Assembly (NCBI GenBank): GCA_964458565.1
Contig: CAYWJO010000014.1
Span: forward strand, 32,256-76,240
Direction of reading: 5' to 3'
Length of the DNA stretch: 43,985 nucleotides
From: an uncultured archaeon
GTDB lineage: Archaea > Asgardarchaeota > Thorarchaeia > Thorarchaeales > Thorarchaeaceae
The notes below the pieces were generated by a model. That model did no database searches. It saw only the letters and a list, made by a program, of their open reading frames with translations, and was not told the origin of the DNA. Positions 1-13,690 of this stretch are shown here, in pieces; the first letter of the stretch is position 1; each line of letters opens with the position of its first letter. A program made the position numbers and the translations under genes.

Positions 1-223
1 GAAGGAGTAGATATGGAGGACTCCTGCGAATATTTTTTGCTGTAATGTAATCTCAGATTATCGTGAAAAATTGAAGAAACACATATGGAGAACGGGTTAG
101 ATTGGTATCTAACTGAATCTCCATACGATCCTTCATGTTGTGCAGCATACAGTCCTTCCAACAGCTGTATCTAGATTTTATTCGTTCTGAATTATAATAA
201 ACATTAGTTGTGCAGATGATTGA

Positions 224-1441
224 TTACAAGATCTCCAAAATTCCTTTTCTCAGAGTGTCCAAGGCTGTGATTTCAAGTGCATTCACCTCAACCAACCCTC
301 TTTGAACATAGGGTATGAATTTCAAGAAATCCTTCACCTCGTCTCTAGCTGCTTCATCAATTAAAGCAGGAATACGTTCGGATATTCTCCGTACATCATC
401 CAACGCATCAAGACCATGGGTTTCGAGTTTCTCATTTACTGACCACTGAATCTCACGTATTTCTCTGAGTGCTGGATAATCCTCAGGTAGAAGTCCGTTG
501 GCAATTCCTCGCCATACTTCAACAATCTCTGCATACTGTTCAGATACATTGAGTATTGTGTCGTTTTGAAGAAGCTCTCCTGCTTCTGCAAGGAAATCAG
601 TATAGATTTGTCTGAAGATGGCTCCACCAGATCCACCTGTTTCAATGTAGATGTAGTGCATCATGAGTGCATGAGCGAGGTTATTTGGTTCAGGAATAAT
701 GTGAGGATATTTGCTAAGTTCCCTACTCCACTTCAAGACTCCTTTGAGACCAGCATTTGATATTGGTGGATTTAGCAAAGCATCGATGTTCTCTCTTATC
801 GCACCAGGTATTATGGTTTCAAGCGGTGTAAGTTTCTCAGGAAATGAAAAGCGAACCATCTGATTCATTGCTGGAAATGGGGGATATGTAGATGCTCTTG
901 CTTTTTGTAATTTAGTGAGCTCCATTGTAGAAGTGCCATGGAACCTGTCCGATATGTAGGCTAGATTATCAGGTTCATCAATCCCGTAAATAAGAAAATT
1001 ATGCTCCCCAAAATGATCATCTTCTCCTGTCAACAAATGGTCAAGATAAGCCATATCTACACACACAAGGGCAGGTTGATCCGTTCGCAATGTGTCTTTC
1101 AAGTAAAAGTGAGCTTTCTTCACACTCTTTGTCAATATCGAATCAAAGTTACCACCCAATCTAATGGCAGCCTTTCCTAAAATACCAGGGAATTTTCGAC
1201 AGTCACTTCGATTCATTCCACCTATCACTGGATACGTCATCATCTTCATGAACCAATAGATAAAACCCAGTCCCGAAGAAATTCCCACAAGCATGGGCTC
1301 ACTAATCTCATATCCCATATGAGCCATCAGACGGATCATAGAACTCGTCTGACAATTCTTCCCATCTCCGAAATGTTTGAAATTTAGGATTATTCTATCG
1401 TTTTCAATTCCTGCAGGTTTGAAATCTGTCATATATATCAC
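224..1441 (-). CDS. BtrH N-terminal / DUF4872 family protein (papain/C39-like fold)
   Basis: Motifs NCQTSS, ISEPMLVGISSGLGFIYW, VDMAYLDHL, GEHNFLIYGID, ISDR and IETGGSGGAIFRQIY match the BtrH-like family. It abuts the PadR gene. Confidence 0.8.
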   Translation of the reverse strand: MIYMTDFKPAGIENDRIILNFKHFGDGKNCQTSSMIRLMAHMGYEISEPMLVGISSGLGFIYWFMKMMTYPVIGGMNRSDCRKFPGILGKAAIRLGGNFDSILTKSVKKAHFYLKDTLRTDQPALVCVDMAYLDHLLTGEDDHFGEHNFLIYGIDEPDNLAYISDRFHGTSTMELTKLQKARASTYPPFPAMNQMVRFSFPEKLTPLETIIPGAIRENIDALLNPPISNAGLKGVLKWSRELSKYPHIIPEPNNLAHALMMHYIYIETGGSGGAIFRQIYTDFLAEAGELLQNDTILNVSEQYAEIVEVWRGIANGLLPEDYPALREIREIQWSVNEKLETHGLDALDDVRRISERIPALIDEAARDEVKDFLKFIPYVQRGLVEVNALEITALDTLRKGILEIL

Positions 1442-4954: not shown

Positions 4955-6856
4955 TCAATCCGGACTATATGATAATGAACTGACTAACTCAAGTGCTTTT
5001 TCTACTTGGGGTATCAAAGCTTTGATTTTATGCTTATTTGCAGTTTCGAGAGCTTGCTGTAATGCTTCAATCATCTTCTCATGCTCTGTTCCCCAATCTG
5101 ATGCATTATCGATATTGGAGAGGTCATTTAATTTCTTAGGAAGTATCTTCAGCATACTTTGTATAGCAGTCTGAGCCTCTTGAGGTTCCAAAATAACTTC
5201 ATCAATCTCGCTATCAGAAGCTGTAAGAATTCTATCAATCTGATTTAGAAGCTTTTGAAACTCCTCCAAAGATTGCTGAAGAATCTCAGTCACTTCCTCA
5301 TCTGTTTCAGAACCACTTATTCTTCTGGTAAGATCCTCGATTGTTGTTTGAAGGAATTGTTTTCTATCATCAAGATTTGTCCGTCGTCTTTCTAACCATC
5401 TCCATTCACTCATAATGCTACTAGATAGAGCATATGCCTCGTTGATTCGCTCCCTATACTTCTCAAATTCATCCTTGGTCGTTTGATATTCGGAATCAAG
5501 GGAATCACAGATTTCGCTAAGCTGATAACTCAATATGTTATCAGCCTGAGCCTCAGATAATACACGACCTTCTCGCAATGCTCTGGCAACTTCAGACCAG
5601 AGTTTTTCAATTTCACGTTCGTCTTGCTCAGCACGACCAGTAGTTTCTAGCTCAGTTTTGAGGTCAGATATCGATGATGCGAGTCCCTGAACTTCCTCTA
5701 TCTTAGATCGCAAAAGTGCTTTGCCAAGTCGCGAGTTTAGCTCTGTTGTCAGTTTTTCCCGTTCAGAAGGAACCTCGAGAAGAGTATGTCCATTATCAAT
5801 CAATTTTTGTAGGGCATTCTCATATTCCGTTACTGCTTTATGATATTCACCCGTTTTAAGAAATGAATCCCCTTTATTTTGAAGTTCAAGAATCATTTCA
5901 AGAATATCATACGGTGATGTACTTAACACACCTAATTCATATAGACCCTCTTTATCACTTGAGAGATCAAGCGCGTGACCTTCGAATTGAATCTGTATTG
6001 CTAGTACTCCGGTAGGTGATGCGACATAGATAAAATCATGATCGACGACAATCCAATCAATTCTAACATCGTCTAATAACACATACCCGATTATGGAACC
6101 ACGTTTTATGTCCCAGATAATGATATTCTCGGAATCATATGCTACAATCGCAAACAGACGATTTGCCCACAAAGTAACGATATTCCCAGTTTCGTTCGGG
6201 ATTAAATTCCTAATACTTGTCCATTCAAACCGATCCCATAAACGCACTTCCCCAGTGCTTAATCCTACAAGAATATATGATTCATTTCCGAATACCTTTA
6301 CACCCCGTTCTTTTGATGATAGTTTTATGATTTCAATTGGAGCTTTTCCAACTGAGAGCGACCAAACTTTTACATCGTCTTTCCTCGCCACCGTACAAAT
6401 GACCTCACCATCTCTCCATAGTGAGATTATATCTGTCTTATAGAGTTGCCATGAAGAAGTCTCATGGCTATCTTTCGTAATTGAGAGCAAACGACCATCC
6501 TTAGCACCAACATAAATGAAGTTATCATAAAGAATCGAAGTAACAGCTTGATAGCCCAATTCAAACCATCCTATCATTCCCCAAGTGCCCTTCTTCCATA
6601 CATAGACACGTTTTTCGCAAGTTGCATAGACTTGTGCATCATCAACTTGGACTCTAAGAGGGGAAGTAGTTGTTTCTCCTAATACTGCTTCAAGCTTCCA
6701 ATCGCGTTTCGACCAAACACGTACACGATTATCTCTACATCCTATATATACAAAATGTTCATCATGACAAAGATGGATGGCATCAGCTTCAAGCGTAGCA
6801 ACTTCTTCGTGTTTTAACTCCTGAACCTCATCCGGACTCCCAATTGAGTTACTCAT
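4955..6856 (-). CDS. WD40-like beta-propeller fused to a TPR/MIT-like helical bundle and coiled coil
   Basis: N-terminal repeats (YIGCRDNRVRVWS, YVGAKDGRL, VGLSTGEVRLWD, NIIIWD), then KGDSFLKTGEYHKAVTEYENALQKL and about 280 aa of heptad-rich helix. Confidence 0.75.
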   Translation of the reverse strand: MSNSIGSPDEVQELKHEEVATLEADAIHLCHDEHFVYIGCRDNRVRVWSKRDWKLEAVLGETTTSPLRVQVDDAQVYATCEKRVYVWKKGTWGMIGWFELGYQAVTSILYDNFIYVGAKDGRLLSITKDSHETSSWQLYKTDIISLWRDGEVICTVARKDDVKVWSLSVGKAPIEIIKLSSKERGVKVFGNESYILVGLSTGEVRLWDRFEWTSIRNLIPNETGNIVTLWANRLFAIVAYDSENIIIWDIKRGSIIGYVLLDDVRIDWIVVDHDFIYVASPTGVLAIQIQFEGHALDLSSDKEGLYELGVLSTSPYDILEMILELQNKGDSFLKTGEYHKAVTEYENALQKLIDNGHTLLEVPSEREKLTTELNSRLGKALLRSKIEEVQGLASSISDLKTELETTGRAEQDEREIEKLWSEVARALREGRVLSEAQADNILSYQLSEICDSLDSEYQTTKDEFEKYRERINEAYALSSSIMSEWRWLERRRTNLDDRKQFLQTTIEDLTRRISGSETDEEVTEILQQSLEEFQKLLNQIDRILTASDSEIDEVILEPQEAQTAIQSMLKILPKKLNDLSNIDNASDWGTEHEKMIEALQQALETANKHKIKALIPQVEKALELVSSLSYSPD

Positions 6857-7069
6857 GATTCGCGCCCATCCATAATTACTTCAGCAAAGGTTGTTAATTT
6901 GCTTTATGTGATTTTCGCAAACAGTAAGATTTGATAAAAAATCTTGTTAGAAACGTCTTTTTAAGGTAAAAAACTACCATTCGGACAGATTATTCCTTAA
7001 AAGGATATAATCAGAACAGACTTTAATACCATGAGATAATCTGCTTTGTATAGATAAGGAGGCCACCTA

Positions 7070-9757
7070 TTGGACAGTCATGAATGGAGACGCGAGATAG
7101 ACAAACTCGCAGAACTGAAAGGGATCCTAGTATCACTTAATCCAAAGCTTGATGAACAAACAAGTCGCCAGATGCGACAACTTTTGGATCTTTTCGCGAA
7201 AATAACCAAACTTGAGAGCGATATTGAGAGTTCTGGTTTTCTGAAGAAGAGAAAGATTCAGACTCAGTTCGAAAAGGCGTCTAGTGATTTTGAAGAGGAT
7301 TTTATGCGTTTAACACGGGATTTTGCTGAAACGATTAGGAAAGAACATAAAGAGGTCGCAAATGTACTACCACGTTTAGAATCAGTAAAACCACAACAAG
7401 TTAAGGCAATATCACAGCTTGGTTTTCCATCCATTAGCTCTGGTGATATTAGAGACCTCACTGCACTTCATGGCTTTGCAAAGGACTTCGCATCACAGTA
7501 CTTATCCCTCCATCAAGAATATGCAAGAGAAGTTAAGACAGCCTTGGATGAGAATAAAGGAACTGTAGAAACCTACGAAAAGCATGTGACAATTGATAGA
7601 GGGGAAGTAACTACAACTGTATCAAATGACGATGTCATTGCACTTCCGATGTCAGAACTTCATGCGATGATGGAGAAACTCAAAGCAGAGAAGACATACC
7701 TCGATGGTAGAAAGGATGAAGTGAGCCGCATGTTAGGAACATCACTAATGAGTGATGTCGAGGGTTTGCAAGCCTACGTCGAAACTGCTGCTAGATTGGG
7801 TCTTGACCTACCAATGGATTTCTCTCAGAAGTTACGAATTCTTGCACGAGATGCATCTAAAGCCACAAACCTGACAACACTTGTTAGTCTTGAAAGTCAA
7901 TTAGATGCCTCACGTCAACAGATGACTGATATGCTGCGTGATAGAATCATTAACATTAAGCATGAAGTAACCACAAAGATTGTTGATGGCGGAATCCCAA
8001 CAACAGCAGATGTGATACCTCCAGCTCCCACCGTAGGTGTAGAAGGTGTAGATATTGCAAGTCTGTTATCATCATATCAGACGATTGTTGAATGGAAAGG
8101 TCAGGTGAAGATCGCATTAAAAGGAGAGATTGAAGAAGCTCTCGAAGAGATTGAAAAAGCAACGGACAAACCCGAAGAGTCTGGTATCAAAGATGTTATA
8201 GATGTCAGAAAATTCATTGCCGATTCTAAAAAGGAATTGAAAGTTGCGGATATCGATGAAATGGTTAAGATTCATCTTAAAGTTAAATCAATGGCCGAGG
8301 AATACAAGAAACACATTACTGACTTAATTCGAGAGTACCTAGCGAGATTCAATGAATTAGCTACATCAGCAGATCGTGTTTTAGATTATGCGCAATTGAG
8401 TAAGAAAGCACCAAAAGTAGAAGAACTCGAAGGTGGCATTGTTTACTTATTACAGTCTCTTGACAACCTGCAACAAGCCGTCGAAAGTGGCGTTGCTACG
8501 TTTCGCGATGCTTGTCAACAAGAAATCGAAGCAATAATAGGAGACCTTCAAACAATCAAACCTGTTTATGCTGAAATCTTCATGCCCATTATTGTCGAGT
8601 TGGAGCAAGGAGCCCAAGATATTGCAAAATTAAATGATTTTTCTGAAATCCGTTCAGAGATGCGTACAATCAAGGAAACCATCCTTGTAAAAGCTCGAGA
8701 TGCTTTGGAAAATCTACGCTACAGACTCGGGGTAAAAATTAGACTTGCTGCTGCTAAACTCATGGGAGCGGGATTTGAGATACCGATTGAAGTCCAGGAA
8801 GCAATCTCTGAATTAAACAGTGTTGGAGTGGCCTCAGACAATGTATTTGGGCTACCAGCAATTGCTCGGAAAATGGTTGAAATCTATGAGAAAAAGATTA
8901 GCGATAATATTGTCCAGTCGCTCATGGTCCAAGTTACCGACTTAAAAAGCTCCTTTGACAGAGCAAAGAGTATAGGCGTAGATGTTGAAGCTGAGTTGAA
9001 AGTTCTATCTAAAATTGAGAAGACACCTCCTGAAGAACTCGAAAATGCAGCTGATGCTTTTGACCAGATTGCAGGTCTAACAACATCTCAGTCAGTGCAT
9101 AAAAAAGTCAGAGAGAGAGCTGATGAAGCATATAATCAGATTAAAAATGCCGTCGCAATCTTCGAAGAACAAGGCATGTCAGAATTTGTTGCGAGATTGA
9201 AAACTCTACTAGAACAGGTTCCAGCTCAATTAGAAGCTGGAGATAAACACGTCAATCAGGCTCTCGAAGTATGTCTAACTCTTGCTAACATTCAGGAAGA
9301 AATGTTAGGAATGATGAAAGAAATCGCATCAAAGAAGGGAGAAGAACATGATGCACAAATCAAGGAGACAAGCAAATACTACTCAACCATTGAGAGGGTA
9401 TTTGAGAAACATCCTGATGATTTTGATAAACTAATCTATCCCCTCAAGGAGCTAAAAAAGGAGGAAGAAGCACTACAGAGTGCCACAATCCTTAACGAGG
9501 CTATTGATCACTTCAACAGAATTTCTGATCTTCGTGAGGGATGGATAGAGAAAGCCGAGAAAATGGATGACTGGCATAAATCTCTAAGAATGTTCCTTAC
9601 AGGATTTAGTGCATCTGCAAGTGCAGATGAGCGAGATAAGTTCTTAGACGAGCAGATAAAGAAAATCAAAGAAACCTATAGCCGTGCGGATATCAGTTCA
9701 TACCTCTCGTGGGCTATCAAGGAACTCGCTCAGGCGATGGTTGAGAAAAGAGGATAA
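7070..9757 (+). CDS. Large all-alpha helical-repeat/coiled-coil protein of unknown function
   Basis: 895-aa ORF with a TTG start and AAGGAGG RBS at 7056-7062. E/K/L/A-rich, with no TM segment or Walker A motif seen. Confidence 0.8.
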   Translation: MDSHEWRREIDKLAELKGILVSLNPKLDEQTSRQMRQLLDLFAKITKLESDIESSGFLKKRKIQTQFEKASSDFEEDFMRLTRDFAETIRKEHKEVANVLPRLESVKPQQVKAISQLGFPSISSGDIRDLTALHGFAKDFASQYLSLHQEYAREVKTALDENKGTVETYEKHVTIDRGEVTTTVSNDDVIALPMSELHAMMEKLKAEKTYLDGRKDEVSRMLGTSLMSDVEGLQAYVETAARLGLDLPMDFSQKLRILARDASKATNLTTLVSLESQLDASRQQMTDMLRDRIINIKHEVTTKIVDGGIPTTADVIPPAPTVGVEGVDIASLLSSYQTIVEWKGQVKIALKGEIEEALEEIEKATDKPEESGIKDVIDVRKFIADSKKELKVADIDEMVKIHLKVKSMAEEYKKHITDLIREYLARFNELATSADRVLDYAQLSKKAPKVEELEGGIVYLLQSLDNLQQAVESGVATFRDACQQEIEAIIGDLQTIKPVYAEIFMPIIVELEQGAQDIAKLNDFSEIRSEMRTIKETILVKARDALENLRYRLGVKIRLAAAKLMGAGFEIPIEVQEAISELNSVGVASDNVFGLPAIARKMVEIYEKKISDNIVQSLMVQVTDLKSSFDRAKSIGVDVEAELKVLSKIEKTPPEELENAADAFDQIAGLTTSQSVHKKVRERADEAYNQIKNAVAIFEEQGMSEFVARLKTLLEQVPAQLEAGDKHVNQALEVCLTLANIQEEMLGMMKEIASKKGEEHDAQIKETSKYYSTIERVFEKHPDDFDKLIYPLKELKKEEEALQSATILNEAIDHFNRISDLREGWIEKAEKMDDWHKSLRMFLTGFSASASADERDKFLDEQIKKIKETYSRADISSYLSWAIKELAQAMVEKRG

Positions 9758-9775
9758 AACAAGGAGCAAAAAAAT

Positions 9776-11170
9776 ATGCAGAGATTTGGTGGAAAAACAA
9801 CGGAAGATGATACAACAAAAGCTGCAGAAGTCTTCGCAATTGGTATAGGAGAATGTGGGTCAAATATCGTAGGTTCATATCTGAAAGCAAGTTCAGATAA
9901 GAAGCTTCCATCACGAGTGAAGGGTTACCTCCTACTCAACACAGACCGAGCTGATCTTACAAAAGTCCGTCAGAAATATGATATACCTAAGGAACATACC
10001 ATGTTGTACGGTGACAGTGACATTGGTGTAGGTGGTAGGTTTATGGATGGATTCAATGCAATGATCGAATCCAAGGACATTATTTTCGATCAGTTAGCTG
10101 GACTTGGATTTGAAGGTGTATCAGGTTTCTGCATCTTTACTTCACTGGGAGGCGGTACAGGTTGTGGAGGTACACCTGCAATTATCGAGCTCTTGAAGCA
10201 ACGTTTTCAAGAGGAAGAAGGTCGAAGAATATTCGTCTATGTTATTGGTATACTGCCATTCGAGGGTCAATCCAGTGAAGCGCTTAACTCAATTTGGGCT
10301 GTATCTAAACTCCTTCGTGCGCAATTGCAGGAACGAGGTGCTGATCTCACTATCCTACTGAGTAACAGAACTATGCTGAAGCGGATACTCCAGTCTCGAA
10401 GTGATGAGAGTGTAGGATATTTACAGAGGGAACTTGAAGTTGACGTTGCAGACATTCATCAATTAGAGAAAATGGTGCCTTCAACTATAGATGAAGGTGG
10501 AGATCTTGAGAAACGGACCGAACAGGCTTTTGTTGAGCTAGTTAATCCCATGGCATTAGATGTCGTAGAAGCAATGCTATCACCTGGAGTTTATGAAAGC
10601 TCCAAGGATGTCTTTCCAACGACAGACTTAGCAGACTATGCTCGGAAACTAGACCCTGTAGTTGTTCCAGCACTTTATCCTGATATCGGTCTAATACCTG
10701 ATGCAGGAAGTATGCCTAACCAGCTAAGGGCCATGATAGATTATGCAGTACGGGAGTGCTCCTACGCAGACGTTGGAGAACAGCCAAACGCAGAAAGTGT
10801 GTACTATGTGTTTAGCGGACCACGTCATATATCTAAAGCTGAATATGGAATGCATCTAAAGGAAGCATTGGACAAGTTCATTGCTCCTGGAGCAGCCATT
10901 ACTCCATGCTACGTGCAATATCATGAACAGGACACACCATCAAACTTGCTTCTGCTTCTTGGATTACCCAAGATACCTGAACTTGTGCAAATCATAAATG
11001 AAGCCACTCAGCTTGTCAATTTGCACAGTGGTGCATCACCACTCAAACAGGGCTGGTTCATGCGTTCAAAAGGTACCACAAGGAAGGAGCTGGTCAGCGC
11101 TATCTCTGATTTCAGAGAATTATTCAGCTATTATTTGTCGCCCACCGATACACAGACTCCAATGGAGTGA
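9776..11170 (+). CDS. Divergent tubulin/FtsZ-superfamily GTPase (CetZ/tubulin-like, not canonical FtsZ)
   Basis: T1 GIGECGSNI, LNTDRADL, T3 GVGG, signature SLGGGTGCGG (GGGTGCGG at nt 10148-10171), ILPFEG, LSN and T7-like TTDLADY. Confidence 0.9.
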   Translation: MQRFGGKTTEDDTTKAAEVFAIGIGECGSNIVGSYLKASSDKKLPSRVKGYLLLNTDRADLTKVRQKYDIPKEHTMLYGDSDIGVGGRFMDGFNAMIESKDIIFDQLAGLGFEGVSGFCIFTSLGGGTGCGGTPAIIELLKQRFQEEEGRRIFVYVIGILPFEGQSSEALNSIWAVSKLLRAQLQERGADLTILLSNRTMLKRILQSRSDESVGYLQRELEVDVADIHQLEKMVPSTIDEGGDLEKRTEQAFVELVNPMALDVVEAMLSPGVYESSKDVFPTTDLADYARKLDPVVVPALYPDIGLIPDAGSMPNQLRAMIDYAVRECSYADVGEQPNAESVYYVFSGPRHISKAEYGMHLKEALDKFIAPGAAITPCYVQYHEQDTPSNLLLLLGLPKIPELVQIINEATQLVNLHSGASPLKQGWFMRSKGTTRKELVSAISDFRELFSYYLSPTDTQTPME

Positions 11171-11177
11171 GTACACT

Positions 11178-12236
11178 TTGAGTGAACCAATTGATATGAA
11201 CGAGTTAATTGACAGATTGCTACTGGTAGCAACACTCAATTCAACTCTGGTTCATTTCTTGCTGTCATCACAGATTGAGGGTCAGGTCGATCCAGATAGA
11301 GTAGACTCACTTACCCAAGGATTGAAACGTACTAGGCAATGGATGGAAAATGCGACGACTGCGGAAGGTATACCTGAATCAACAGCCAATATCATGGGAC
11401 TCATCGTGAAGCGGCTTTCTCAAATTGAGAGCCTTCTGCCAAAATTGTCCGTACGTGCTCAAACATCATCTACAGCCCCAACTGCTGAGATATTGTCATT
11501 GCTTGATGGAGGTCATAAAGCACCAACAAGAACTGATGTAGTGACAACGGAAACGACACATTCTGACTCAGGACTTGTATCGGTCAAAGGAGAAGAAGAA
11601 CAGGAACCTGAAGAACCCTACATAAAGACCGAGATAGAAGATGATGAATGGGGATATATTGGTCAGCAGAGACGACTAATAGACCAATATAGCAAGCGAT
11701 GTCATGTACTTCTCCCAACCTTCTGGTATGAAGTTCTACGAGAACTTCACAAGTACCAATCAAAGTCAACCTATATGGGAGATGTCATCGATGAACCATC
11801 CAAGACCGTCATGAGGGTAATCAAAGGATTACTCACTGAAGCTCCTGGTGCTAGATTGTTACAGGATCTTTCAAAACGAAGACCACAAGAGAGAGACCTA
11901 ATGGGTTCAGAGATTGAAAGAATCGAAAGAGCAGTAGCTAACTATTATCGCGGAGTTGAAGGTATACTAAAGGGTGAGAAACTTCGAGTGCAAGAAAAGA
12001 TAGATGAAGCATCTGCTACATTTGATGGGTTCGATTGGGGAGGTCCTGAGCTTGAGAAACGCATCATCAAGAGATTCAATCAGAGAGCAGAAGAAGCACT
12101 TCGCTCTGCTGAGTCGGACTCTGATGAAATACGTCAAGTTATTCTTGCTGAGGTATCTAAGCTACTTTGCAAGCTCCAGCTTGCAATCTTAGCTGAACCA
12201 CGTTTGAGAGAAATTCTGACTCAGATGAAACCTTGA
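11178..12236 (+). CDS. Hypothetical helical protein, third gene of the tubulin-like operon
   Basis: Likely start is TTG 11178 or ATG 11196, just after the GTPase stop. Two helical domains joined by a Thr/Ser/Glu-rich linker. Confidence 0.7.
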   Translation: MSEPIDMNELIDRLLLVATLNSTLVHFLLSSQIEGQVDPDRVDSLTQGLKRTRQWMENATTAEGIPESTANIMGLIVKRLSQIESLLPKLSVRAQTSSTAPTAEILSLLDGGHKAPTRTDVVTTETTHSDSGLVSVKGEEEQEPEEPYIKTEIEDDEWGYIGQQRRLIDQYSKRCHVLLPTFWYEVLRELHKYQSKSTYMGDVIDEPSKTVMRVIKGLLTEAPGARLLQDLSKRRPQERDLMGSEIERIERAVANYYRGVEGILKGEKLRVQEKIDEASATFDGFDWGGPELEKRIIKRFNQRAEEALRSAESDSDEIRQVILAEVSKLLCKLQLAILAEPRLREILTQMKP

Positions 12237-12241
12237 TGAGT

Positions 12242-13513
12242 TTACACGTGTCTTCGCTTTACTAGAATGACCAACGCAACAAGACCGATAATACCAATCC
12301 CAACAAGAATAATGATGAACATGTCTGATTGGTAGATTGCAGGAGTTGGAGTTCCATAGACGACTATACAAAGATTGTAGTAATCTCCATCACCGTACTG
12401 CGCATGCAAATATAATACTCCTTTATCAGTTGCAGCAATACCTCGAACCCATGAGAATACGCTAGTGAATTCATAATCCCACGTATCTGGTGCTCTAAGA
12501 GTTTTATTCCATACAAGATTACCATCTGCATTGAACTTGTCAAGTATCATTGTTGGCTCTGTCTCATTCCGGATTTTATAGTAGAGATATACCGAACCAT
12601 TACTTGCTGTATCAATTCCGCCACAACTATGCAGACTGCCATAATAATCTTCCCAGCCGATTGAGTCAGTTGTATTCCATATTTCATTCTGGTTAGCATC
12701 AAACTTGCGTAGCGTATACCCTGGTTCGGTGGCAACGATGTAATTTCCATCACTTAGGACATCGAATAAGAAAGTAGGTACTACTGAAGCCCACTTTACT
12801 GAACCCGATGTATCCCATTGTTTCATACCCCCATAATACGGATCTAAGGAATAGATGAGTCCATTCTCAGACATTTTCATTTCCATGTCACGCCCAACAC
12901 AGTACCCTCCTGAATAGTTTGCAAGAAGTGTACCATCAGCGTTGTACTTGAGTAATACTTCTAATCCTAAGTGAAGTTGTGTCGCAGTTTCGTTGTGATC
13001 AAAAATCGCACAGAGAACATACACATTCCCATCAAGATCAACATCAACATCCCAAGCTCTTTGCTTGGAGGTCCAATTCCAGGTCCGTGACCAAAGGATA
13101 TCACCATTGGATGACCATTTTACAAGGAGTGTTTTGACTACAGATTCTGATGATATCCATCCTGCTGTATAGATGAATGAACTTGATAATGCGATGCCAT
13201 TAATCTGTGTATGTTGACTTCTATCCCAAGTCCTATTCCAAACCAAATTGGCTGTGGGACTCCACTTCACAAGATGAAATGTATAATTCTCAGTAAATCC
13301 GTAATCATCACTGGACCCAATCTGATATACATATCCATCATCAGCAATTTCAAAATCTACAGCGTGAACAGAAATCCAACCCGGATTCCATAAGCCATAG
13401 TATGAGGGCTTAATTGTTCCTGATACGACAACCCCATTTGAGGGAACGAAGGAGATACATCCTAAAGATATCAGATAAATCAGAATCCCACACACGAATA
13501 GTTTCTTCCTCAT
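12242..13513 (-). CDS. Secreted beta-propeller repeat protein with C-terminal TM anchor
   Basis: Signal peptide, repeats such as LVKWSSNGDILWSRTW and LDKFNADGNLVWNKT, then TM plus KRRHV. Confidence 0.78.
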   Translation of the reverse strand: MRKKLFVCGILIYLISLGCISFVPSNGVVVSGTIKPSYYGLWNPGWISVHAVDFEIADDGYVYQIGSSDDYGFTENYTFHLVKWSPTANLVWNRTWDRSQHTQINGIALSSSFIYTAGWISSESVVKTLLVKWSSNGDILWSRTWNWTSKQRAWDVDVDLDGNVYVLCAIFDHNETATQLHLGLEVLLKYNADGTLLANYSGGYCVGRDMEMKMSENGLIYSLDPYYGGMKQWDTSGSVKWASVVPTFLFDVLSDGNYIVATEPGYTLRKFDANQNEIWNTTDSIGWEDYYGSLHSCGGIDTASNGSVYLYYKIRNETEPTMILDKFNADGNLVWNKTLRAPDTWDYEFTSVFSWVRGIAATDKGVLYLHAQYGDGDYYNLCIVVYGTPTPAIYQSDMFIIILVGIGIIGLVALVILVKRRHV

Positions 13514-13690
13514 TAAATTGACCTCTACTAATAGTTTGTATCCCAGATGTTTTCATTTACAATCATATATGTTTTGGTAATCATTTTCATCAGAGAACGA
13601 GAACGCTTAGAAATTGAAAGTACAGTCCATAGACAAATCCCATATAAGGGATAATACCTCTCAGCACATAATACAAGACGAGGGTGAGAA

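Follow-up and report, generated by a model that had tools for sequence, protein, structure and literature searches.

The window analysed here is a stretch of 43,985 nucleotides (nt) from an uncultured Thorarchaeales archaeon (contig CAYWJO010000014.1), and our subject is a set of three co-oriented, closely packed genes, A, B and C, that the list of open reading frames and their translations places on its forward strand at positions 7070-12236 (Table 1). The central gene encodes a GTPase of the tubulin/FtsZ superfamily, and the trio is co-inherited across many Asgard lineages and is therefore probably a cytoskeletal module. The existence of the A-B-C module and the predicted binding of GTP by B are close to certain. 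On balance, and with modest confidence, we favour a reading in which a probably polymerising GTPase of the CetZ-like group Asg.Tub works with a helical rod, A, and a two-domain adaptor, C, probably outside FtsZ-based division.

No known prokaryotes are more closely related to eukaryotes than Asgard archaea, and the module bears on the origin of tubulin-based cytoskeletons and their accessory proteins. Work on AtubAB and OdinTubulin concerns true tubulins; Asg.Tub is a separate paralogue that falls between CetZ and tubulins in trees. It occurs in about 40% of the sampled Asgard genomes, accompanied by two obligate partner families without known relatives, and the operon offers a three-component system in which the co-evolution of a tubulin-like polymer and its associated proteins could be followed. 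The Asg.Tub group was named, as CetZ-like proteins of Asgardarchaeota, by Santana-Molina, del Saz-Navarro and Devos in 2023 (PMC9871819); three things go beyond that paper and were not found in the literature: the constant A-B-C trio, the strictness with which it is co-inherited, and the architecture of the partner proteins.

Arrangement and co-inheritance of the three genes

Genes A and B are each preceded by a ribosome-binding site, AAGGAGG at 7056-7062 (7 nt 5' of the TTG start of A) and AAGGAG at 9762-9767, and 18 nt separate the two genes. The start of A is backed by its homologues, which share the same N-terminal position with the consensus MDSHxWRR. For C, the TTG at 11178 lies after a gap of 7 nt from the stop codon of B, has GGAG 10 nt upstream, and agrees both with the N-termini of homologues and with the database gene call (P0248, 352 amino acids, aa). 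An alternative ATG at 11196 would leave a 25-nt gap to B. A start at 10998, given by the long frame of the mechanical open-reading-frame list, would overlap B, and the homologue N-termini and P0248 favour 11178 over it. The original prediction for this locus, which was made from the sequence alone, had described three co-oriented genes with these positions, spacings and ribosome-binding sites, and in all of this it was correct. We propose that A, B and C make up one co-transcribed, translationally coupled operon, which would encode an Asgard-specific module of the tubulin superfamily.

Strong evidence that the three genes form a functional module comes from their co-occurrence and fixed adjacency in other genomes. 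Among 151 sampled Asgard genomes (related genomes not being independent samples), B is present in 60 and A and C in 61 each, and the pattern over families is identical for the three. They occur in 25 of 26 genomes of the window's own family, in 15-16 of 19, 4 of 4, 5 of 5 and 7 of 7 genomes in four other families, in the single genome sampled from each of three more, and in none of the 19 remaining families, two of which contributed 25 and 13 genomes. By coordinate comparison, the gene immediately upstream of B, on the same strand, is A at all but two of 62 B loci (60 of 62); at one of the two, 4.3 kb lie between A and B (G119:C96), and the other has a contig break (G079). C follows directly downstream of B except at a locus interrupted by 8.2 kb (G037:C69), at contig breaks and at second A-B copies. 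The two interrupted loci may reflect insertions. With the same gene order at about 60 of 62 loci, the arrangement is not due to chance.

The order A-B-C recurs in the loci fetched from Thor, Hodarchaeales/Heimdall, Hermod, Baldr and Asgardarchaeia genomes and from another Promethearchaeota lineage, with short gaps or overlapping genes (overlap in L002 and L013), and BLAST identifies the flanking proteins as homologues of A and C. The pattern extends to lineages whose B shares no more than about 50% identity with that of the window. The module is chromosomal and mostly single-copy, and the conservation of the locus within families fits vertical descent. Synteny across Asgard genomes had been put forward in the original prediction as a check on the system, and the trio proves to be both syntenic and co-inherited.

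Family and motifs of the GTPase

The closest homologues of all three proteins come from metagenome-assembled genomes (MAGs) of Thorarchaeota, with identities of 85-95% for B and 60-88% for A and C, in keeping with an initial guess that the DNA came from an Asgard archaeon. B matches the Pfam family Tubulin (PF00091) at 71 bits (cut-off 33; E = 2e-19; residues 18-202) and carries the T4 signature GGGTGCGG at residues 125-132, with Cys at the S/T position of GGGTG(S/T)G, which bears out the tubulin/FtsZ signature first called in the middle gene. The genome to which the window belongs (3.73 Mb, 93 contigs) has three PF00091 genes, namely B and two canonical ftsZ genes elsewhere. Against NCBIfam TIGR00065 the two true FtsZ proteins score 418 and 392 bits and B scores 34.4 (cut-off 295.2); B is therefore an extra paralogue rather than a division FtsZ, and its early description as a divergent GTPase other than FtsZ1 or FtsZ2 stands. 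Canonical FtsZ itself is found in 140 of the 151 sampled Asgard genomes and in all 72 of the high-quality ones.

Among solved structures, the best profile match to B is CetZ1 (4b46, E = 1e-11; then 3zid and 4b45). Weaker matches are to OdinTubulin, BtubA, AtubA and gamma-tubulin at about 1e-4 (about 6e-5 to 1e-4) and to FtsZ at 6e-4, and from CetZ1 to FtsZ alike the N-terminal domain alone aligns. Profile-profile alignment of the B family with CetZ (hhalign) extends over both domains (345 columns, probability 99.6%, E = 6.7e-25); for the C-terminal part the relationship of the C-domain of B to that of CetZ is remote (E = 1.4e-4, probability 53%). Pfam CetZ_C (PF21011) is not listed for B at E up to 1, Tubulin_C gives no match in Pfam, and Tubulin_2 (PF13809) reaches 17.4 bits (cut-off 27) over a 44-residue stretch only. 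The family is isolated in a profile search of 1.84 billion cluster representatives: its members score 491-727 bits, a divergent sister (P0371) 157 bits, and the best other full-length proteins at most 73 bits. Nearly all full-length homologues with names come from Asgard MAGs; two odd or fragment labels (Bathyarchaeota and Thermofilum) fall within one 50%-identity cluster. In a maximum-likelihood tree of 73 rows (quick IQ-TREE, LG+C20, SH-aLRT support), the B family is one clade (support 99), sister to P0371 and P0382, and lies outside both the FtsZ clade (support 96) and the CetZ clade (support 98), the latter labelled through P0389, which matches CetZ1 4b46 at E = 3e-113, and P0437.

Several assignments were considered and rejected on these grounds. 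B is not a canonical FtsZ1 or FtsZ2, given its TIGR00065 score and its place outside the FtsZ clade, nor a canonical CetZ, given its place outside that clade and the missing CetZ_C match, a conclusion with which the published tree agrees (PMC9871819). A eukaryote-like tubulin, whether tubulin itself, BtubA/B, OdinTubulin or AtubA/B, is disfavoured by the absence of Tubulin_C and by E values of about 6e-5 to 1e-4, as against 1e-11 for CetZ1; with a profile match at about 6e-5 that covers the N-terminal domain only, the suggestion that B is neither OdinTubulin nor AtubAB is upheld. FtsZl1, FtsZl2 and other Tubulin_2 proteins were discarded on the PF13809 score.

We assign B to the published Asg.Tub clade. 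Its residues from about 224 to 464 match the Thorarchaeales proteins KXH77455.1 and OLS30664.1 almost residue for residue in the Asg.Tub-C supplementary alignment (PMC9871819), and LC-3 protein P0114 is among its homologues. The published phylogeny includes four Asg.Tub sequences (OLS26264.1, PWI48967.1, KXH77455.1 and OLS30664.1), and in the tree file the clade has 100% support and a long stem, with Halo.Tub as a weakly supported (62) sister; the position of Asg.Tub between CetZ and tubulins is unstable (PMC9871819). The same paper reports the genes next to Asg.Tub as mostly coiled-coil, of no known identity, and the genomic contexts of CetZ and CetZ-like groups as unrelated (PMC9871819). By this sequence-based assignment the GTPase family is not new, and the original prediction went astray in treating B as unrecognised: the clade had been described and its neighbours already noted. 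The outgroup called 'CetZ-related Asgard archaeal clade' in bioRxiv 10.64898/2026.02.15.705738 is probably Asg.Tub as well.

Within an alignment of 40 family members, which are 48-95% identical to B, the residues expected to handle nucleotide are invariant or nearly so: the T1 loop GxGECGSN (GIGECGSN in B), the T4 signature, E168, N171 and N197, followed by N257 of the core helix and by P270-G271, K277 and the run P281-T-T-D284-L-A-D287-Y. D284 and D287, in the T7 stretch TTDLADY, are invariant. An ungapped profile scan against CetZ, taking the best of all offsets, places N257, D284 and D287 on CetZ N188, D215 and E218. The last of these is said to be the T7 residue that Duggin and colleagues mutated in 2015 in the classic GTPase-dead allele of CetZ1. 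Since the GTP-binding loops and the D-x-x-D pair are kept, B is likely to be a polymerising GTPase; at the level of motifs, an intact inter-subunit catalytic loop, and hence polymerisation, appears likely.

Two groups outside the family were noted in passing. P0371 (L012:8001-9374), which like P0382 is a divergent sister of Asg.Tub, has 31% identity (hhalign E = 1e-34) and keeps GIGEGG, GGTGCGG, VNP and the D-x-x-D pair; it has no H6-H7 insert of the kind found in B. No A-like or C-like gene is among its neighbours, and its downstream gene compares with C at a probability of 4%. A well-supported clade of 13 rows (P0384, P0385, P0388, P0400, P0404 and relatives) belongs to the tubulin superfamily and has the T4 signature GGGTGNG; its nearest solved relative is distant, CetZ1 at E = 8e-10.

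Partner proteins and the proposed module

Neither A nor C has a Pfam or NCBIfam match or an enzyme domain. Both are acidic (isoelectric point, pI, 5.1-5.2), have no transmembrane-like segments and are predicted by AF2 models to be all-helical, in accord with the first description of the flanking gene products as soluble, helical and devoid of enzyme motifs. The model of A (pLDDT 85, pTM 0.38) consists of some 30 helices in a row, interrupted by long loops near residues 180, 318, 447, 588, 725 and 848, a period of 130-140 residues. When segments of A are compared with one another by hhalign, residues 276-361 match 407-489 (probability 61%, E = 8e-5), and other internal matches in the same register reach a probability of at most 33%. 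This is weak evidence that A may be built from tandem units of about 130 aa rather than on a 65-70-aa period. Lineages differ in the length of A, between 870 and about 1190 aa (1170 aa in Hodarchaeales), as would suit a modular rod. The last 150 residues of A are conserved, with W835/H836 and Y878/L879 invariant. Homologues of A are present in every Asgard lineage that has B, those of other lineages including P0126 (29% identity, E = 1e-121), P0125 (E = 3e-32) and P0124 (E = 3e-13). Foldseek found no match for A in the PDB, the best rows being dynein heavy chains and PRC1 at E of at least 0.15; the wide VIA search returned generic helical bundles only (Z up to 11.4), the Atlas feature search its own Thorarchaeota cluster only, and Pfam Spectrin no match. 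A GCP/Spc97-like identity for A was set aside, there being no Pfam match and no GCP row in Foldseek or VIA.

The AF2 model of C has a pLDDT of 80 overall and above 93 in the C-domain, where invariant motifs lie around LTEAPGARLLQDL and GFDWGGPELEKR. Homologues of C stand downstream of B in other classes (P0128, E = 2e-43; P0127, E = 1e-25). Foldseek of full-length C against the PDB gave no match at E of 0.001 or below, the VIA wide search matched only the N-terminal three-helix bundle, to generic bundles with Z up to 9.7, and a shape search of the ESM Atlas with full C stayed below a TM of 0.3. Prediction of a complex of B with C returned a score of 0.00, 'no answer', which speaks neither for nor against binding.

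We propose that B binds GTP and that its subunits most likely polymerise head-to-tail, giving protofilaments like those of FtsZ, CetZ and tubulin, with D284 and D287 on the T7 loop completing the GTPase site of the next B subunit. A, a rod of about 100 kDa made of serial helical bundles, would most likely scaffold, space or bundle the polymer formed by B. C, with its helical N-domain, acidic flexible linker and compact C-domain, would most likely act as adaptor or regulator, connecting the polymer with A or some other target. Since two canonical ftsZ genes are located elsewhere in the genome, the role of the module is probably not division; it may help to set cell shape, form protrusions, or organise membranes or cargo. 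That B polymerises, that A and C each bind it directly, and what each partner and the whole module do in the cell are inferences.

Comparison with characterised systems helps to place the proposal. CetZ, the nearest characterised family to B, acts in Haloferax on cell shape and not on division (Duggin et al. 2015, as cited in PMC9856176 and PMC12583498). Its T7 loop, long as in B, bears a D-x-x-D/E pair that may stand in register with that of B (ungapped scan, z 0.7 against shuffles); CetZ also has a similar terminal helix region and co-exists with canonical FtsZ; it differs in its T1 loop, GQAG or GQCG where B has GECGSN, and B has in addition the T4 Cys and an insert of about 40 aa between H6 and H7. 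CetZ genes are not known to have a fixed partner operon. TubZ/TubR/TubY and BtubAB/BtubC are tubulin-like operons with dedicated partners, which modulate or anchor the filament. They resemble A-B-C in combining a superfamily GTPase with small or helical partners in one operon, but the partners are unrelated in sequence and B has no close relationship to TubZ or Btub; neither Pfam nor NCBIfam shows a TPR/Bklc-like or winged helix-turn-helix domain in A or C. Unlike those operons, the A-B-C module is both chromosomal and restricted to Asgard archaea. OdinTubulin and AtubA/B, from Lokiarchaeum and Heimdallarchaeia, share superfamily and phylum with B and are likewise extra paralogues beside FtsZ; they differ in having other neighbours and only weak N-domain similarity to B (E of about 6e-5 to 7e-5). 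AtubAB is also encoded as an operon (PMC13394414), but AtubA/B is an A/B heterodimer pair, whereas B is a single GTPase gene.

A number of observations weigh against a polymerising GTPase with rod and adaptor. The ungapped T7 register on CetZ is not significant against shuffles (z 0.7) and rests on motifs. Full-length hhalign of B against CetZ places the T7 stretch differently, because the variable H6-H7 insert, itself a point against this reading, causes H7 and T7 to be misplaced; when the C-terminal part is aligned alone, T7 is not aligned. In B, Thr replaces the conserved Asn of the FtsZ and tubulin T7 loop, and Glu stands in the T1 loop in place of the Gln of tubulin and CetZ. Some loci of Heimdall/Hodarchaeales type hold A and B without C, as a second or as the only pair; second A-B copies without an adjacent C are seen at G139:C10 and G136:C85 and likewise at the Heimdall locus L001 (CP070695). 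C is therefore not always needed next door and is dispensable in cis for some copies. No functional study or structure of any Asg.Tub member was found in the literature, and no known family or fold gives A or C a function, in searches made with full-length proteins and not with the C-domain of C alone.

One alternative that we regard as unlikely, though it deserves attention, is that B is non-filamentous and acts as the GTP-switch subunit of a discrete A-B-C complex, either a nucleator or cap resembling gamma-tubulin with GCP or a regulated heterotrimer whose helical partners keep B monomeric or dimeric. Helical GCP proteins hold gamma-tubulin, and A, large, all-helical and always co-encoded with a tubulin-fold protein, has a similar outline. 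Gamma-tubulin chains are among the weak profile matches of B (E of about 9e-5), and with the T7 Asn replaced and the T1 Gln changed to Glu a polymer-dependent active site may be altered. However, A lacks a Pfam GCP/Spc97 match and its Foldseek and VIA rows hold no GCP chain, generic bundles being all that it matches (Z up to 11.4); the acidic T7 pair is invariant, as expected for hydrolysis across a subunit interface; and the genome, with two FtsZ and B only, has no other tubulin to nucleate. We give rather less credence to an accessory role in FtsZ-based division, where B would be a third FtsZ-like ring protein, anchored or regulated by A and C. Such a role would suit a protein of the FtsZ superfamily encoded by a chromosomal, mostly single-copy and vertically inherited module, and archaea often divide with more than one FtsZ paralogue (PMC12583498 and references therein). 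Yet about 60% of the sampled Asgard genomes are without the module and keep canonical FtsZ, so the module does not belong to a divisome common to Asgard archaea. B is, moreover, closest to CetZ, a cell-shape protein in Haloferax, and SepF and other division genes are missing both from the window's locus and from the loci compared from other genomes.

Segregation of DNA in the manner of TubZ, with B as the filament motor and A or C as a DNA-binding adaptor for a chromosome region or an integrated element, seems to us very improbable. TubZ systems, too, combine a divergent GTPase of tubulin type with small partners of their own, and the language-model neighbours of one B homologue include TubZ-type clusters (scores 0.90-0.93). 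Nevertheless, neither A nor C has a DNA-binding domain, helix-turn-helix or other, by Pfam or NCBIfam, a cryptic fold being possible, and a repeat scan found no iteron or centromere-like arrays in the flanks of the operon. The neighbours are housekeeping genes and not mobile-element genes, the conservation of the locus within families fits vertical descent, and the Tubulin_2 score of B, 17 bits, is below its cut-off of 27.

The polymerising module that we favour admits a bolder version, which is speculative and which we would not expect to hold: a cytoskeletal machine in which a polymer intermediate between CetZ and tubulin is built, measured or cross-linked by A as a helical ruler, the number of units of about 130 aa setting the spacing, while C couples it to membranes or cargo. 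If true, this would be a prokaryotic forerunner of a tubulin polymer with dedicated partners like microtubule-associated proteins. A weaker extension concerns membranes. Halo.Tub, the weakly supported sister of Asg.Tub, includes WP_014555346.1 of Haloquadratum walsbyi (PMC9871819 tree file), and in the same genome the 'Halo_adaptin' ESCRT neighbourhood ends with the CetZ-like protein WP_014555340.1 (PMC10936438 supplementary file 9). The two accessions are six apart, so Halo.Tub genes may adjoin the Halo_adaptin membrane-remodelling locus. Together with the WD40-helical protein encoded head-to-head with A (Table 1), this hint means that the module could have a role in membrane remodelling.

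Neighbourhood of the operon

Table 1. Positions of the operon and adjoining features in the window; entries for the domains of C are residues of the protein
Feature	Position	Strand	Description
WD40 neighbour	4955-6856	-	633 aa; WD40 beta-propeller, then helical (TPR-like) region; head-to-head with A across 213 bp
Intergenic region, WD40 gene / gene A (divergent)	6857-7069	.	213 bp; holds AAGGAGG 7056-7062; A/T-rich TATA-like stretches near 6997-7012
Gene A	7070-9757	+	TTG start; 895 aa, 101 kDa, pI 5.1; predicted all-alpha, consecutive helical bundles; conserved upstream partner of B
Gene B	9776-11170	+	ATG start; 464 aa; tubulin/FtsZ-superfamily GTPase, assigned to the Asg.Tub clade (CetZ-like, Asgard-only)
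Gene C	11178-12236	+	TTG start; 352 aa; helical; conserved downstream partner of B
C, three-helix bundle	7-109		AF2 model
C, disordered acidic linker	~101-142		AF2 model
C, helical C-domain	150-352		AF2 model
423-aa open reading frame	12242-13513	-	Convergent with C, stop codons 5 nt apart; no Pfam match

In the loci compared, no neighbours other than A, B and C are common across classes, and a scan of window positions 6000-13600 against Rfam gave no match. The region between A and the WD40 gene probably contains both divergent promoters. It also holds an imperfect 16-nt inverted repeat (6956-6971 and 6990-7005; 81% complementary, 18-nt spacer), which may be the site of a regulator or may have arisen by chance.

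The domains of the 633-aa WD40 neighbour are faint in Pfam, with weak WD40-type matches all below their gathering cut-offs and TPR_8 at E = 0.008. The gene is present in 20 of 26 genomes of the window's own family, nearly always divergently adjacent to A, and its product has 44-46% identity between genera. Used as a query, the protein was not found in other lineages that carry A-B-C; we place its gene outside the core trio because its position is conserved in the window's own family only. On the other side of the operon, a related Thorarchaeota locus (L008) has a CoA-ligase gene directly after C, and the 423-aa frame in the window therefore looks like a local insertion.

Genes for Arf-family small GTPases lie near the module at Heimdall-type and Asgardarchaeia loci (L001:9377-12905, L002:4532-5113 and L009:102-1037). 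Genes of this kind are numerous in Asgard genomes, so chance may account for their presence. A weak Roadblock/LC7 match is found at L001 as well.

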